Below are positions 16,831 to 23,589 of a stretch of DNA of 64,000 nucleotides, one piece after another. The stretch covers positions 5,270,001 to 5,334,000 of the forward strand of contig NC_086097.1 of assembly GCF_963921235.1 (NCBI RefSeq), read 5' to 3'. This stretch comes from Mobula hypostoma. Lineage: Eukaryota. Position 1 is the first letter of the stretch. Each line of letters opens with the position of its first letter. Both the position numbers and the translations under genes were made by a program. A model generated the notes under the pieces. It ran no database searches. It saw nothing but the letters and a program-made list of their open reading frames with translations, and was not told the origin of the DNA.

Positions 16831-18129
16831 ATTCTTTCCAGATGGTTCTGAGTTTGGAGCAGAGGGATAGGAAAATACTGTTAAAACTACCTTTGCTAAT
16901 GCGGACCAGTGCCAACCCTGACTCTTCTCCAAGTTATCATCAATTGGCAGTTGATGTGGCAATTGCTTATTTTTCTAGTCCATTAGTTAAATCGTTATAG
17001 GATCTTGATGATATCATCAATGCCCAGTTTTACCCTCTGAGTTCCCTAAGTTTCTCCTTCGTTTTCTGTGTGATGTGGAAAGATGAAGGGGCTGGTTCAT
17101 GTACCTCCAAAGGTGGGTGGCACCCTGTGATTTGCATAGGGTAAAACCGAATAGGGAGGGTCACTGTTGTCACGTACAGCCAAGATCAGGGAAAGAATGA
17201 AGATTTCTTTAAGGCAATTAAATCTCAAGTCATTACGATTGTCCAGGTTTCATCATATGACTGTGGACTGGGCTTTCAGAATGACAAAATAGTTCACTCT
17301 GTTCAAGGATGAAAGATTGGGAAATAAGTATCAGTGAGACCATAAGACATAGAATAGTACAGTGCAGGAACCAACCCTTCAGCCTACAATGTTGTGCTGA
17401 ACCAAATACATTAGTAACTAAACTAATCCCTCATACCTACACAATGTCCACTTCCCTCCACTTCCCTTTCATTCGTGTCCTTTATCTGCCTCTGCACCAA
17501 CTTCCCTTTTGGAGTTGAGCTGTTACACCAGCTGTATGCGCTGGTGTGAACTGTAGTCTCGAAGGTGCACAGCAGTTAGGGCGTGTCATGTATGGCCAAA
17601 TCAAGGCTGTGGGGCCTGTGTCCGAGAGCAGGGGATGTTGTGTATTTAATATTTCAATAATATTTGAGTAATCTCCTATATATATATATATAGGTTGATC
17701 AAGCATTCATGCTAATTTAAATAATTCATCAGGGGTTATATGCATAAATACGAGAAATGCATACATCATCACACTACCACATGATACATGCACATCCCAC
17801 TTAAAGTAAACACAAAGTTAGACCCATACTTTCAGATTCCCTTGTCTTCCTTTTCATTAGTTTAATGTTTTGAAGTTAGAAAACATTATATTGGCAGAGG
17901 TATTTTTAAAATGAACCTAAGATGGCTATCAACCTTTTGAAGCACAGGGAGATGTTCATGCTAAAAGAAGTTCAGCAAGGAACATAGAGTTAAAAAAAAG
18001 CCACGCTGCTTGTGACCGTCAGATGGGAAGACATGATTGAGTTAAAAAAGTCAGAAAATTGAAGATTTCAACGGTTCATAAAAAGTGAGTATCGGGTGAT
18101 AATAATCATAAAAAATCAGAAGGGTTGAT

Positions 18130-19340
18130 TACACAACAGGTAACTGTCTTATGTATACTGAGTTAATTTAACAATATTTTGATGAAAATGAAATAGCCAA
18201 TGAGAAATGAGTACCAATTTTGCTGAATGCATTAGGTCTAGAAGCATACAGTTTGCTTCAAAGTTCAACTGCTCCACCACACCAGCAGAAATGAGAATTG
18301 TTGATATTGTCAAGGTAACGTAGAAACATTTAGAATGAAAGTGATTGTCAATTGCAGAATATTTTAGGTTTCATAAGTGGAATTTGAAAAAAAGAGCAGT
18401 ACATTTCAGTGTAAATGGCTCCATTGAAGAGATTTTCTGAGCATTGTCAGTTCAGTCATGGGCTTATTGATACACTGAGAGATCATTCAGTTTGTGGAAT
18501 CTGGCAAGAAAGCATTCAAAAACAACTCCTAACTGAAGCGCCACTTACATTCAAGAGAGCAGTCAAACTTGCTGTTTCAATGGAAACCGCAGATAGAGAT
18601 TCAGTTGAGTTGCAGTCAGGAATGAAGGTGAGCGTCCACTAAATTGCAACAGAAGTTGGCCTGACCAAACAAGTTGTGTAACTGTTGTGGCAGGTGCTCA
18701 CATGCATCAGGCCGATGCAGATTTAAAGGTGAAACTTGCAAAAACTGCAACAAAGTAGAACACAAACAAAGAGCTTTTTGGGCAGACAAAAGTAAATTGA
18801 ATGTATAGGGAAGAGAAGAAGTTAAAAAGCCAAGTTGCAGTTTTCAAAAAGAGCACTAATCTGAACACTTCTGATGAAAAATCTGATAATAATGAAAGTA
18901 ACACAGGATTGTGTAGACTTGAGAATTATAGTGAAAACAAACAACAGACAAGCAATATAACTTCTGGTAGAAGTGAATGGCAATTAAATTGAAATGGAAA
19001 TAGACACTGGTTCAGCTGTTTCGGTCATTCCACAAAATGAGTCTGAATGGCATTTCAAAAATATTGAACTGAAGCCTGCAGATTTCCAACTCGGAACTTA
19101 TACTGGAGAAAAGATATCTCCTGTGGGAATGACATTCATAACAGTGAAATACAACAACCAAAAGCCACATTGTGCTTGTATGTGGTAAAAACAAGACAAC
19201 CAGCAATGTGGAGACATGATTGGCTGAGGCAACTACACCTGGATTGGAGATCCATCCACTATTTTCATGTCGCATCCCCTGCAATAAAGCCAATTGAAAG
19301 TGAATTTAAAAAAGTTCTGTATGATGCCACAACTGTCTAC
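18130..19340 (+). pseudogene. Gypsy gag-protease remnant
   Basis: QYFDENEIANEK.VPILLNALG; LKRFSEHCQF..LRDHSVCGI..IQKQLLTE..LTFKRAV; two degenerate CCHC knuckles at about 18671-18778; MEIDTGSAVSVI aspartic protease; RHDWLRQL. Confidence 0.9.
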
Positions 19341-19382
19341 ATGCTAAACATCATGAACTATTCCCCAGCAGAGGACAAACAG

Positions 19383-20142
19383 GTGTCGGTGTGGACCTCT
19401 GTGCCTCTGGTCGAAAAGTATATTGGATAACGGAAGGACAGAAGGGCAACGCTGCTCAGAGGAATCGTGAAAAGTGATGAAAACAGTAGTCCAACTACAA
19501 CAGTTTTTGTTGTCAACATGTCTGAGAAAGCTTCCGAAATATTAATCTTAGAACATAGAACATAAAAAATCTACAGCACATCGCATTCCTTTTGGCCCAC
19601 AATGTTGTACTGACCATGTAACCTACTCTAGAAACTGCCTAGGATTTCCCTACTGCATAGCCGTCTGATTTTCTAAGCTCCATGTACCTACCTAAGAGTC
19701 CCTTAAAAGACCTTATTGTATCCACCTCTACCACTGTCACTGGCAGTGCATTCCATGCACCTACCACTCTCAGTAATTCCTTGTGAAATATTGCTTGGTT
19801 TTAAGCTAGAAGAGAGTTCAAGGAGCTTCAGAAAAGTTGTGAGCATTCAGCTTTTGAGTTAAGGTTATTGTATAAACTTCAAATGGCAGACAAAAAAGCT
19901 GCTTGTAAAAGTAAATGCAAAGACCAAACCCCAGCTCAATGAAAGGAAGTCCAAAAAGAAAGGAATCAATGGAGATACGAAAACAGAATTTCTCAGAAGA
20001 TGGCATCGATGAGGAAAGCTCGAGAAGAGATCAGATCATAACGGGAGCGATAGGAGTATTAATAAGAGAATACTCCAGTGAACTAAATTCACCTTCCAAA
20101 GATCAAGATGCGCAAACTAGAAGAAAAGAAAGAGAAGAAAGG
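19383..20142 (+). pseudogene. RBM25: Processed (intronless) fragment of RNA-binding protein 25, RRM region, inside the Gypsy element; split by a CR1 insertion
   Basis: SDENSSPTTTVFVVNMSEKASEILI / LVKYCLVLS*KRVQGASEKL*AFSF / LRLLYKLQMADK, KLLVKVNAKTKPQLNERKSKKKG / DEESSRRDQIITGAIGVLIREYSSELNSPS match recalled vertebrate RBM25 (DENCGPTTTVFVGNISEKASDMLIRQLLAKCGLVLSWKRVQGASGKLQAFGF...KKLLVKVDAKTKAQLDEWK...RRDQMIKGAIEVLIREYSSELNAPS). Confidence 0.93.
19549..19772 (-). mobile_element. CR1 3' end inserted into the RBM25 fragment
   Basis: agaacatagaacata tail; ggcagtgcattccatgcacctaccactct; RBM25 homology resumes immediately after. Confidence 0.85.
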
Positions 20143-20330
20143 CATAGAGAGCTGTCAAAACCACGTTCTGCAGTCTCAGAGTCAACTCCTACAACCACCA
20201 CGAGGAGCGCCCAGAACCAGGGGTTGTTTTCACAGTCACAAGTCTCACCTGCCAAGCAGAGTGACACCCCTTGTCATGACAGTAGTTAGCCCACAGGAGT
20301 AAGAAAGTCTCCGCAATGATTAAATCTTTA
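20143..20330 (+). pseudogene. Gypsy pol C-terminal tail (post-integrase)
   Basis: Pro/Ser/Thr-rich stretch ending SS*PTGVRKSPQ*LNL, a decayed RRYPxRxRxPPxRL motif, just upstream of the 3' LTR. Confidence 0.7.
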
Positions 20331-20557
20331 CACCTGAATGGGACAATTTAAAAATACACTATGTTGTAGATATCTATATATAGTAGTTGTATTATATAGT
20401 AAAATGTGTGCACAGTTATATTGAGTTTGAGTTTATAGCACAGTACAGTGGAGTGTTGTGTATTTAATATTTTAAAAATATTTGAGTAATCGTACATATA
20501 TACTGTATTGGCTGATTAAGCATTATAGTTCATTTTAATAATTTATTACTGGCTATA

Positions 20558-21902
20558 CAGTATTCAGCCCCCACCCCCTTGGAGCTTTCATGTCTTATCG
20601 TCTTACAACATTGAATCACAGTGGATTCAATTTGGCTTTTTTGACACTGATCAACAGAAAAGGGACTCTTCCGTTTCAAAGTGAAAACAGATCTCTACAA
20701 AGTGAGCTCAATAAATTATAAATATATAACACAAAATAACTGATTGCATAAGTATTCGCCCCTTTAATATGACACACCAAATCCTCACTGGTGTGGCCAT
20801 CTGGTTTTAGAAGTCACATAATTAGTTAAAAGGAGATCTGTTTTTGGAGACCCATGTGCAGTCAACGTGTTTCAAATGACTGTAGTAAAAATACACCTCT
20901 ATCTGGAAGGTCCAACTGCTGGTGAGTCAGTATCCTGGCAAAAACGACACCATGGAGACAAAAGAACACTCCATGCAATTCCACGAAAAGATTGTTGAAA
21001 AGCACAAGTAAGGAGATGGATAGAAGAAAATTTCCAAGATACTGAATATTCCTTGGAGTATAGTTAAGTTGGCTGGAGTTTGCCAGAAGGCATGTGGGAG
21101 ACTCTGAGGTCAGCTGAAAGAAAGTTCTACAGTCTGATGAAACCAAAATTGAGCTTTTTGGCCATCAGACTAAACGCAATGTTTGGCATAAGCAAAACAC
21201 CTCACATCATCAAAAATACACCATCCCTACCGTGAAGCACGATGGTGCTGCATCATGTTGGGAGATACTTCCCTACAACAGGCCCTGGAAAGCTTGTGAA
21301 GGTAGATGGTAAAATGAATGCAACGAAATACAGGGAAATCCAGGAGGAATACCTGATGCAGTCTGCAAGAGAACCACAACTTGGGAGAAGATTTTTGTTT
21401 TCCAGCAAGACAATGACCCCAAGCATAAAGCCAAAGCTACAAAGTTAATGTCTTGGAGTGGCCAAGTCAGAATCCAGACCTCTATCCAATCGAGAATTTG
21501 TGGCTGGACCTGAAAAAGGCTGTTCACTCACGATCCCCATGCAATTTGGCAGAGCTTAAGCAGTTTTGTAAAGAAGAATGGGGAAATATTGAAGTGTCCA
21601 GATATGCAAAGCTGATAGAGACCTATCCACACAGACTCAAGGCTGTAATTGCTGCCAAAGGTTCATCTACCAAATACTGACTTGTAGGAAGTGAGTAATT
21701 ATGCAATCAATTATTTTGTGTTTAGTAATTACAATGAATTTACATCAATCCATAGAAATTTGTTTTCATTTTGACACAGAAGAGTCTTTTCTGTTGATCA
21801 GTGTCAAAAAAATCCAAATTAAATCCATTGTGATTCAATGTTGTAAAACAGTAAAACATGAAGATTTCTGTGGAGGAGGGTGAATACTTTCTATAGGCAC
21901 TA
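20558..21902 (+). mobile_element. Tc1-family DNA transposon, decayed, inserted in the Gypsy 3' LTR
   Basis: Long (about 200 bp) imperfect TIRs, TA on both flanks; SDETKIELFG, PTVKH, QQDNDPKHKAK, EWPSQNPDLYPIENLW (DD34E type). Confidence 0.93.
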
Positions 21903-22009
21903 TATGTATAAATAATTAATACTATGTGATACGTGTGCACCTCACTTAAAGTAAACATGGAATTAGACCTGCATTTTCAAACTCTCTTGTCTCCTTTTGA
22001 ATTAATTTG

Positions 22010-22438
22010 AATTAATTGGGTCTTTATTCTTTGCAGCGTAGAAGGTTGGGGGGGACTTGATAAAGGTATTTAAAATTATGAGGGGGATGGATAGAGTTGT
22101 CGTGGATAGGCTTTTTCCATTGAGAGTGGGGGAAATTCAAACAAGAGGACATGAGTTGAGAGTTAAAGGGCAAAAGTTTAGGGGTAACATGAGGGGGAAC
22201 TTTACTCAGAGAGTGGTAGCTGTGTGGAACGAGCTTCCAGCAGAAGTGGTAGAGACAGGTTCGATGTTGTCATTTAAAGTTAAATTGGATAGATATATGG
22301 ACAGGAAAGGAATGAAGGGTTATGGGCTGAGTGCAGGTCGGTGGGACTAGGTGAGAGTAAGAGTTCGGCATGGACTAGAAGGGCCAAGATGGCCTGTTTC
22401 CGTGCTGTAATTGTTAAATGGTTATATGGTTATTTGGT
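22010..22438 (+). mobile_element. CR1 3' fragment inserted in the Gypsy 3' LTR
   Basis: IKVFKIMRGMDRV..TRGHELRV..FTQRVVAVWNELP; (tatatggt)n tail. Confidence 0.9.
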
Positions 22439-23589
22439 TAATTCAATGTTTTGAAATTACAAAACATAACAGAGAACAAGCCAAAGTTTGGCCATTGAAG
22501 CAGACTTGTAGGCGATTAAAAGTGGCAGAACTGAGGTGAGGCAGATTCGAGGCAGCGTGGCCCATGCCTGAGAGTAAGGAACAAGCTGATGTTTAACAAA
22601 TTTAAGCAGCGGACCGAATTGTATGGGCGAAACAAAGTGGTGGTTTCCAGGCCAAGGGCATACCTAAATGGTAGGGCCCACATCCGAGAGCAAGGTATGA
22701 CCAGAGGTTTGGATAATTTCAGTGCCGAGTGAGATTGAAAAGGTCAGAGTGTCAGGGTCAGAGGCAAGGGGCAGAGCAGTTCAGCTCACTGCTCACGAGG
22801 TTTACTCATCTCTGCACTGCAGTGAGGTTGAGCTCTGCAACTAACGGGCTCCTGGATCATCAGCTTTTGGTTTCATGGCTGTGGACTCTCTTTTGTAAAC
22901 TTCAGTTCTAAGTATTACTTGCTTACTTTTATTGCTTACATGACTTGCTTTTCCCTGCATGGTTTGACCTTTTTTTAATGGGTTCTACTGAGTTTCTTTG
23001 TTTTGTGGCAATCTAAGGAGGCGAATCTCAAGGTTGTGTAAAGTATACACACTCTAGTAATAAATGTACTTTGAACAATTATAATGGACAGAAAGCTGCA
23101 GAAAGTGGTGGACTCAGGTCATGTGATTAAAGAGAGAGACAGAAATATTAAACAGAATTACAATTTCTAACACTAATTATCTTTTTGAAGGACTGAGATT
23201 CCACTTGTTATGTTATTTTTTTAAGGTCAGAGAGGTGGTTGGCACTTAATTATCACACTGTGGAAAACTCATTCGGAACTGTGGCTCTTTGCTTTCTCAC
23301 TCATTTCAATGCAGAACTATAGGCCAGTATTATACAGTCACAACATTATTTCCTGTCAGTGCTGTGTCTGTCTCCAAGATCTGGAACAGAACGTCCTGCT
23401 CAGAAGTGAAGTTCATCTGCCAGATACGTCCAGTTTTCCATTTGTATTGTGGCATAATTCTCATTAGTTTAATTTCATGTAGAAATGAGCACTGTTAATC
23501 CAACCACTATTCGTATTGCAAACTATATCACATTGTTAACTTTCATTAGTAATCCTAGAAGGTTGCATTTTCTATGTTGACACATAAAT

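Follow-up and report, generated by a model that had tools for sequence, protein, structure and literature searches.

A degraded Ty3/Gypsy-type retrotransposon of Mobula hypostoma carrying an RBM25 fragment in place of reverse transcriptase, RNase H and integrase

The stretch analysed here, referred to as the window, comprises 64,000 nucleotides (nt) of Mobula hypostoma contig NC_086097.1 (positions 5,270,001 to 5,334,000, forward strand). Between window positions 17636 and 22471 lies a degraded Ty3/Gypsy-type long terminal repeat (LTR) element, which consists of LTRs, gag, protease, sequence of the host gene RBM25 and a C-terminal tail of pol. It is highly probable that this element is one dead copy of a large non-autonomous family that carries spliced RBM25 sequence, captured in one event and amplified in a single burst. 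An earlier interpretation made from the letters of the window (the sequence-only reading) had proposed an LTR-mediated retrocopy; this proposal is supported, and none of the comparisons run that could have gone against it did so. The family is a case of LTR-mediated gene transduction, a mechanism class that is already known, and an unusually prolific one.

The Captured RBM25 Segment

The identity of the captured sequence (the cargo) is seen in copies of the family that are better preserved than that of the window. A 194-amino acid (aa) open frame of copy L002, which runs from the protease into the cargo, matches RBM25 of many vertebrates (best E 1.3e-26), with 172 proteins at E<=0.001 among 728 candidates, and a 147-aa frame of copy L012 contains RRM_1 as a full domain, at 31.5 bits where the cut-off is 20.7. 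The protein comparison run on the L002 frame thus returned as best match the very protein that had been named from the window itself, and the cargo is a fragment of RBM25 and not a paralogue.

The host RBM25 gene was located by means of a C-terminal piece of the RBM25 protein, and 100 kb of the region were analysed. The gene lies on the minus strand of contig C1 (~99.81-99.84 Mb), with its PWI exons at C1:99.79-99.80 Mb; its exons were mapped with tblastn and blastn, and their AG and GT splice signals were checked. Two further loci (C76 and C2), which came from a search with the PWI model, do not match RBM25. The segments of the cargo and their source exons are as follows, with window coordinates and strand first and host coordinates on C1.

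19325-19334, plus strand: 5' junction zone, 10 nt equal to the last 10 nt of host exon X (which ends at 99838439), from comparison of the exon end with 7 copies
19335-19382, plus strand: alternative exon i, 48 nt (host 99832633-99832586); blastn (window 19335-19384) to C1:99832633-99832586
19383-19548, plus strand: exon ii (host 99829160-99828990, 171 nt), start of the RRM, the last ~14 nt resuming at ~19771-19784; blastn (19381-19547) to host 99829162-99829005, 80% identity
19785-19842, plus strand: exon iii (host 99827251-99827194, 58 nt); blastn (19785-19839) to host 99827252-99827198, 87% identity
19843-19974, plus strand: exon iv with a deletion (host 99824415-99824255, 161 nt); blastn (19859-19974) to host 99824368-99824254, 88% identity
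19975-20141, plus strand: exon v (host 99819430-99819254, 177 nt), running into a purine-rich remnant of exon viii (host from 99809257, first ~32 nt captured); blastn (19974-20141) to host 99819430-99819259
Absent from the window copy: exon vi (host 99813200-99813117, 84 nt)
Absent from the window copy: exon vii (host 99810685-99810351, 335 nt)

In the host, these exons are separated by introns of ~1.1-6 kb, and a 9.3-kb gap between exon X and exon ii holds two alternative exons, Y and i. Copies L011, L015 and L021 each align to the joined host exons in one stretch of ~1,060 nt, and therefore all introns are gone from the cargo. The exon-by-exon match to the host locus establishes what had been proposed earlier, a spliced, multi-exon cargo without introns. 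The proposed bounds of the cargo fared differently, in that the RBM25 identity stood and the start at 19383 did not: host-derived sequence begins at 19325/19335.

Long copies of the family contain a cargo of ~1.07 kb drawn from nine exons. The window copy is of a short form: it stops after exon v, exons vi-vii and part of exon viii being deleted. The cargo is without the PWI domain, and nothing beyond the first ~32 nt of exon viii was captured. The stops and frameshifts noted before in the cargo are present (3 stops in the host frame of the window copy), and the stretch reported as missing near 19857 is a real deletion of ~12 codons (~36 nt; CEYKEPESTLRA) within exon iv. This deletion is private to the window copy, as L012 and L018 both keep the stretch.

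The presence of exon i in the cargo calls for some attention to its use by the host. Exon i has an AG acceptor and a GT donor; it (48 nt, C1:99832586-633) and the small exon Y (30 nt, C1:99837476-505) both keep the reading frame and lie between two exons that encode ...GIMTPATT and VLVPTSVP..., respectively. Contigs from the sequencing runs of two organisms (A, runs X1 and X2; B, run X5) cross RBM25 introns with GT..AG-type ends. Their joints connect exon i to Y and Y to X, and lead from X to a more upstream exon. Joints of this type are those that spliced RNA would give, and exon i is taken to be a real alternative exon. The residues of exons Y and i are absent at this position from the two RBM25 proteins inspected (gar P0023, and P0122). 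In the organisms of runs X5 and X13, the RBM25 intron differs by ~1-3%.

Junctions, Reading Frames and the Route of Capture

The 5' junction is ~10 nt before the end of exon X (alike in 7/7 copies compared), and the 3' junction is ~31-33 nt inside exon viii (alike in 7 long copies and in the short form of the window). Since both junctions are identical in every copy examined, they point to one capture. At neither junction is there a poly(A) tract or a flanking duplication in the copies compared. The L1-type signature of poly(A) and target-site duplication, which had been named as a possible finding against LTR-mediated capture, was looked for and is absent, and junctions that are shared among copies and lie inside coding exons, without poly(A), exclude that an L1-type pseudogene landed separately in an element that had suffered a deletion. 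It is extremely improbable that a pseudogene made by a long interspersed nuclear element (LINE) was set into a pol-deleted element, or that an element recombined at the DNA level with a nearby RBM25 retrocopy. LINE-type repeats are indeed abundant, and two of them are nested in the window copy; against this stand the lack of poly(A) in a cargo that is cut at both ends inside coding exons, the lack of a duplication flanking the cargo, the reading frame, which is kept with gag-pol at both joins, and the amplification of the whole unit, its two junctions alike throughout, along with the LTRs.

The frame is documented by open frames across each join: (i) over the 5' join in L002 (194 aa) and L017 (287 aa); (ii) over the 3' join in L011 (154 aa) and again in L017; and (iii) over the short-form join in the window itself, where a 124-aa frame (19915-20289) passes from RBM25 into the pol tail. 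As both junctions preserve the frame, gag, protease, RBM25 fragment and pol tail formed a single reading frame in the founder.

The events that would account for this structure can be set out as follows. In the founder, a single event would have put ~1.07 kb of host RBM25 mRNA, already spliced, in the place of the region from the start of the reverse transcriptase (RT) to near the end of the integrase. The captured piece would have comprised the last 10 nt of one exon, the 48-nt alternative exon, six whole exons and ~32 nt of a ninth, covering the whole RRM and most of the Glu/Arg-rich region. The most likely route would be two template switches of the reverse transcriptase, the first onto a co-packaged RBM25 mRNA and the second back to the element, as has also been proposed for LTR-mediated retrocopies and retroviral transduction. 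The resulting chimera would have kept LTRs, leader, polypurine tract, gag and protease, and RT and integrase would have been supplied in trans by a related autonomous element, a mode of mobilisation to which the missing enzymes and the copy number point. Amplification would then have occurred in one burst soon after capture, as the long form together with in-frame deletion forms like that of the window, and the family would have been neutrally decaying since.

A capture in the style of retroviral oncogenes has to be weighed against these two switches. In such a capture, the progenitor would have been inserted in or upstream of RBM25, a DNA deletion or read-through splicing would have fused it to the exons, and a single switch would have restored the 3' end. 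Several observations speak for it, as the 5' junction is only 10 nt from an exon end, the cargo holds a non-canonical alternative exon that is truly used by host transcripts, and the 3' junction joins non-homologous sequences within an exon, as the model would have it. The 10-nt host-identical stretch that abuts the 5' junction bears on its pure splicing version: host homology passes the acceptor of exon i and continues 10 nt into exon X, which leaves the junction off the splice site. Splice-mediated capture at the exon i acceptor is rejected, since the 10 nt before it are those with which exon X ends. Furthermore, blastn of the RBM25 introns that surround exons X to ii finds no family remnant, and the only LTR-like match lies far upstream in the opposite orientation. 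We regard this kind of capture, of which a DNA-level fusion to exon X is the version that keeps some probability, as unlikely and prefer two template switches.

The LTR-like match just mentioned is at C1:99876630-99876893, ~36 kb upstream of the start-codon exon of RBM25, with 67-81% identity to the family over the aligned parts. It probably represents a solo LTR or else an unrelated copy.

Loss of Replication Enzymes and Assignment to Ty3/Gypsy

It had been claimed that RT, RNase H and integrase are missing between the LTRs, and a protein comparison agrees. The gag-pol relative P0269 (1319 aa), compared with the whole 64-kb window, aligns only at 18112-19340 through its residues 7-420 (gag, protease and linker), and its residues 421-1319, which hold RT, RNase H and integrase, gave no alignment in the window at E<=1e-3. 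The three enzymes are also absent from 21/21 other copies fetched (L002-L022).

Pfam searches with the window's own frames gave nothing useful, this copy being too degraded, and better-kept sister copies were used instead. Over 154 aa, the L020 gag frame shares 58% identity with P0269 (blastp E 1e-52), and the protease of the window itself is 57% identical to P0193 over 77 aa. Domain models gave zf-CCHC_5 in L002 (E 0.0018, under the Pfam cut-off) and RVP in L017 (E 0.001, 19.8 bits, just under the cut-off). The pol tail of L017 aligns with the C-terminal end of P0193, a teleost gag-pol fragment (E 1e-8), and shares a short C-terminal end motif with P0193, P0234 and P0269. In the relative P0234, the domains are ordered RVT_1 (218-357), RT_RNaseH (447-554) and rve (693-784). 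These data support a predicted pol-deleted derivative, whose Gypsy label comes from homology of gag, protease and tail to polyproteins ordered RT, RNase H, integrase. Because the element has no RT of its own, the label rests on these homologies, and through them the earlier assignment to Gypsy was borne out.

Non-autonomous LTR retrotransposons of the TR-GAG type keep their LTRs, primer-binding site, polypurine tract and gag, have lost RT and integrase, and occur in many copies. The present element fits this type in keeping LTRs and gag, in lacking RT and integrase and in its many copies. Unlike the TR-GAG type, it also keeps the protease and carries host exons.

Size, Forms and Age of the Family

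A 312-nt query over the protease-RBM25 junction returned 3,157 first-look candidates, a gag query 5,136 and a query from exons iv-v 2,467, all unverified, and each place that was scored proved to be a copy of the family; it looks as if the genome holds thousands of copies, as an estimate. The protease-RBM25 junction is spanned in 39/39 other scored places at 78-82% identity, and the order of parts is common to 21/21 other copies fetched. These shared layouts and junctions bear out the suggestion of a non-autonomous family that spread an RRM cassette through the genome. When the whole RBM25 protein was compared with the genome, 54/54 scored places were contiguous, intron-free copies of the family and none was the gene. 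Several deletion forms occur among the copies within the purine-rich part coding for Glu and Arg, and the short form of the window was itself amplified, as its join of exon v to the cargo end is crossed in 39/39 other scored places. No protease-RBM25 fusion was present among the best 150 of 530 matches in a library of 1.84 billion proteins, in which dead copies are rarely predicted as proteins. In L018 (C96:22421498-22425115), the protease end and RBM25 segment occur in tandem, a partial unit followed by a full one, which suggests an internal duplication or a recombinant of two copies.

For the age of the family, 22 copies were each aligned to host exons i-v (615 nt), and Jukes-Cantor (JC) distances were taken without building a consensus. 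The distances at codon positions 1, 2 and 3 were:

Between copies: 0.223, 0.212, 0.209
Between copies and host: 0.134, 0.116, 0.209
Shared stem (half the distance between copies subtracted from that between copies and host): 0.022, 0.010, 0.105
Net distance, short versus long form: 0.002, 0.003, 0.004

The equal distance between copies at the three codon positions fits neutral decay on a star-shaped tree. The stem is almost wholly at third positions, which is explained by drift of the constrained host gene since capture, and its size matches that of one terminal branch (0.107); therefore, the burst came soon after capture. The distance figures were the same whether copies had been picked by similarity in DNA or in protein, and the short and long forms are not separable by distance, with no branch between them. 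The LTR pairs of single elements (JC ~0.28 in the window copy, p ~0.20 in L016) are as distant from one another as unrelated copies are. The data fit one burst soon after capture, followed by neutral decay of ~0.107 substitutions per site. If 1-2.5e-9 substitutions per site per year are assumed, the age of the burst would be about 40-110 million years.

It may be asked at this point whether the RBM25 piece was more than a passenger. In such a case, the RRM fused to gag-protease, or the RBM25 RNA itself, would have raised packaging or expression and driven the burst. Three joins are in frame (5', 3' and short-form deletion), for which the chance is ~1 in 27 if they were free 1-in-3 draws; the burst came close after capture; and the RRM was captured in full. 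On the other hand, there is no codon-position bias between copies, the star-like phylogeny offers no master-lineage branch on which selection could be read, forms without the Glu/Arg-rich part spread too, every one of the 22 copies examined has at least one stop in the cargo frame, and an open frame may merely avoid mRNA decay. Among these 22 copies, no codon-position signal of selection on the cargo was found, nor was there a branch between short and long forms. A benefit from the cargo is held to be improbable, and a passenger fragment in a neutrally decaying family remains preferred.

Several points weigh against the proposed history of capture and amplification. The template-switch route is inferred from the anatomy of the junctions, and how much of the 10-nt overlap is microhomology depends on the progenitor sequence. 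The joint of exon X to exon i, as it occurs in the element, is not among the contig joints listed, beside which 140 further joints exist. Genome searches with P0234 and P0269 found many full Gypsy elements, but no close autonomous partner: the ten that were fetched are without similarity to the family in DNA and agree with it in only 39-53% of gag residues. The copy number rests on first-look candidates, with 40-54 places scored per search. Finally, the block conserved among copies after the 5' LTR is no more than a putative primer-binding site, and the flanks of the window element (GGGGA versus GAGAA), which match at 3/5 positions, show no recoverable target-site duplication.

Element Layout and Nested Insertions

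The outer bounds given in the sequence-only reading (17636 and 22471) proved exact once the LTR ends had been set against other copies, and both LTRs, the block resembling a primer-binding site and gag were recovered by repeat search and by comparison with other copies. Outside the cargo, the features are:

17636-17890, plus strand: 5' LTR, 255 bp, TG...CA, direct repeat with 20454-22471
17891-18093, plus strand: leader, with the primer-binding-site-like block just 3' of the 5' LTR; homologous region in other copies
18094-18930, plus strand: gag remnant with several stops and two CCHC-type knuckles at ~18665-18775
18931-19324, plus strand: protease remnant with D-T-G at 19003-19011, followed by the linker that would normally lead on to RT
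19549-19770, minus strand: nested common repeat in exon ii, absent from 39 sister copies scored
20142-20453, plus strand: pol C-terminal tail that continues the RBM25 frame, followed by untranslated sequence and a degraded polypurine tract
20454-22471, plus strand: 3' LTR, TG...CA, in three blocks (20454-20557, 21904-22008 and 22433-22471)
20558-21903, plus strand: Tc1/mariner-like DNA transposon remnant in the 3' LTR, with inverted repeats and a broken DDE transposase
22009-22432, plus strand: second nested CR1-like repeat, which interrupts the LTR alignment

The end of the 5' LTR (...AAAACATAACA-type) was set from the LTR ends of L011, L018, L019 and L020. Two nested insertions split the 3' LTR, whose three blocks align to the 5' LTR with 79%, 71% and 83% identity, respectively. 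In tblastn comparisons, residues 7-235 of P0269 and 7-254 of P0193 fall on gag at 18112-18850, and residues 288-420 of P0269 and 281-421 of P0193 on the protease and linker. A purine-rich block precedes the LTR in 9/11 LTR starts listed.

A motif of ~29 nt occurs once upstream of the 5' LTR (17609-17637) and twice downstream of the 3' LTR (22555-22583 and 22671-22699), the two downstream occurrences being 116 nt apart. The element may have inserted into a short tandem or dispersed repeat, which would also cloud the target-site duplication.

The insertion reported within the cargo is confirmed, and repeats similar to it occur in L005, in L042 and in introns of the host RBM25. Its label as CR1 derives from a C-terminal motif, and we take it to be the 3' end of a CR1-like LINE. 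The same C-terminal motif recurs in a 102-aa frame (22042-22350) of the second nested repeat, which gave no Pfam match. The DNA transposon remnant between them has inverted terminal repeats of 56 nt (20587-20642 and 21807-21862) that are 88% complementary, and a DDE_3 match (E 4.9e-4) below the cut-off. Beside another copy of the family (L007:2466-2915), there is a 150-codon open frame made of a tandem repeat of ~11 codons (DDRRMEVYVRG-like), which is unrelated to the element.

Relation to Known Systems

In acutely transforming retroviruses (gag-onc), spliced cellular sequence in frame with gag replaces replication genes, and the virus depends on a helper. The RBM25 element appears analogous in that spliced host sequence replaces replication genes in frame with gag, and it would likewise have depended on a helper. 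Unlike the gag-onc viruses, it gives no sign of an infectious virus, env or transforming function, and it spread in the germline as a transposon family. The plant element Bs1 of maize reportedly occurs in few copies and is without RT of its own.

Bs1 is described as an LTR retroelement with transduced fragments of three host genes in a hybrid reading frame (PMC13317346). The RBM25 element resembles it as an LTR retroelement with host-gene fragments in a hybrid frame, and differs in having one host gene, nine exons and very many copies (PMC13317346).

In animals, LTR-mediated retrocopies consist of an intron-free mRNA fragment between discontinuous LTR-retrotransposon sequences; they have no poly(A) and no L1-type duplication, their fusion points are compatible with template switching guided by microsimilarity, and the authors consider the loci able to act as non-autonomous LTR elements (Tan et al., 2016; PMC5131818). 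The RBM25 family shares the intron-free cargo, the LTR-element sequence on both sides and the lack of poly(A) and of an L1-type duplication. It differs from the retrocopies so described in its apparently thousands of copies, in the gag and protease that it keeps and in a cargo that is in frame (PMC5131818).

Among endogenous retroviruses of crocodilians, CrocERV29 carries KIT-ligand and CrocERV31 carries nectin3, the latter replacing env; they are reported in 9 and 6 copies with complete open reading frames and purifying selection (Chong et al., 2014; PMC4299795). These, too, are vertebrate retroelements with captured host mRNA. Unlike them, the present family is a Gypsy-type element in which the cargo is a fragment that replaces RT, RNase H and integrase, its copies are far more numerous and no selection is detectable (PMC4299795). 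The Drosophila element TART-A carries a fragment of nxf2, which is reported to contribute to the targeting of nxf2 by small RNAs (Ellison et al., 2020; PMC7785250). In both TART-A and the RBM25 family, a piece of a host RNA-processing gene is present in many genomic copies that share sequence with the host mRNA, although TART-A is a non-LTR element (PMC7785250). A search of the literature for RBM25 together with LTR retrotransposons, by title and start of abstract and with Repbase and Dfam outside its scope, returned nothing on this family, and broader searches yielded analogues only.

Significance

Capture of host mRNA by LTR retroelements is mostly known from single loci or a few copies, and here the copies are seemingly thousands. 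So many intron-free RBM25-like pieces may mislead gene prediction, retrocopy counts and the mapping of RBM25 reads. The family is also a dated marker, with one burst ~0.107 substitutions per site ago.

That the captured RNA-binding module of RBM25 was the reason for the family's success is a doubtful proposition. A gag-protease-RRM fusion might have bound and packaged its own RNA, with the pol-less element out-competing its helper. Alternatively, thousands of RBM25-like copies might have directed the host's small-RNA silencing at the RBM25 mRNA, so that control of the transposon became linked to a core splicing factor. Either version would give an example from nature of a transposon whose fitness rose through a host RNA-binding domain that it had stolen, and the family offers a system for asking whether such a domain, or sequence identity to a host mRNA, alters the fate of a non-autonomous element.

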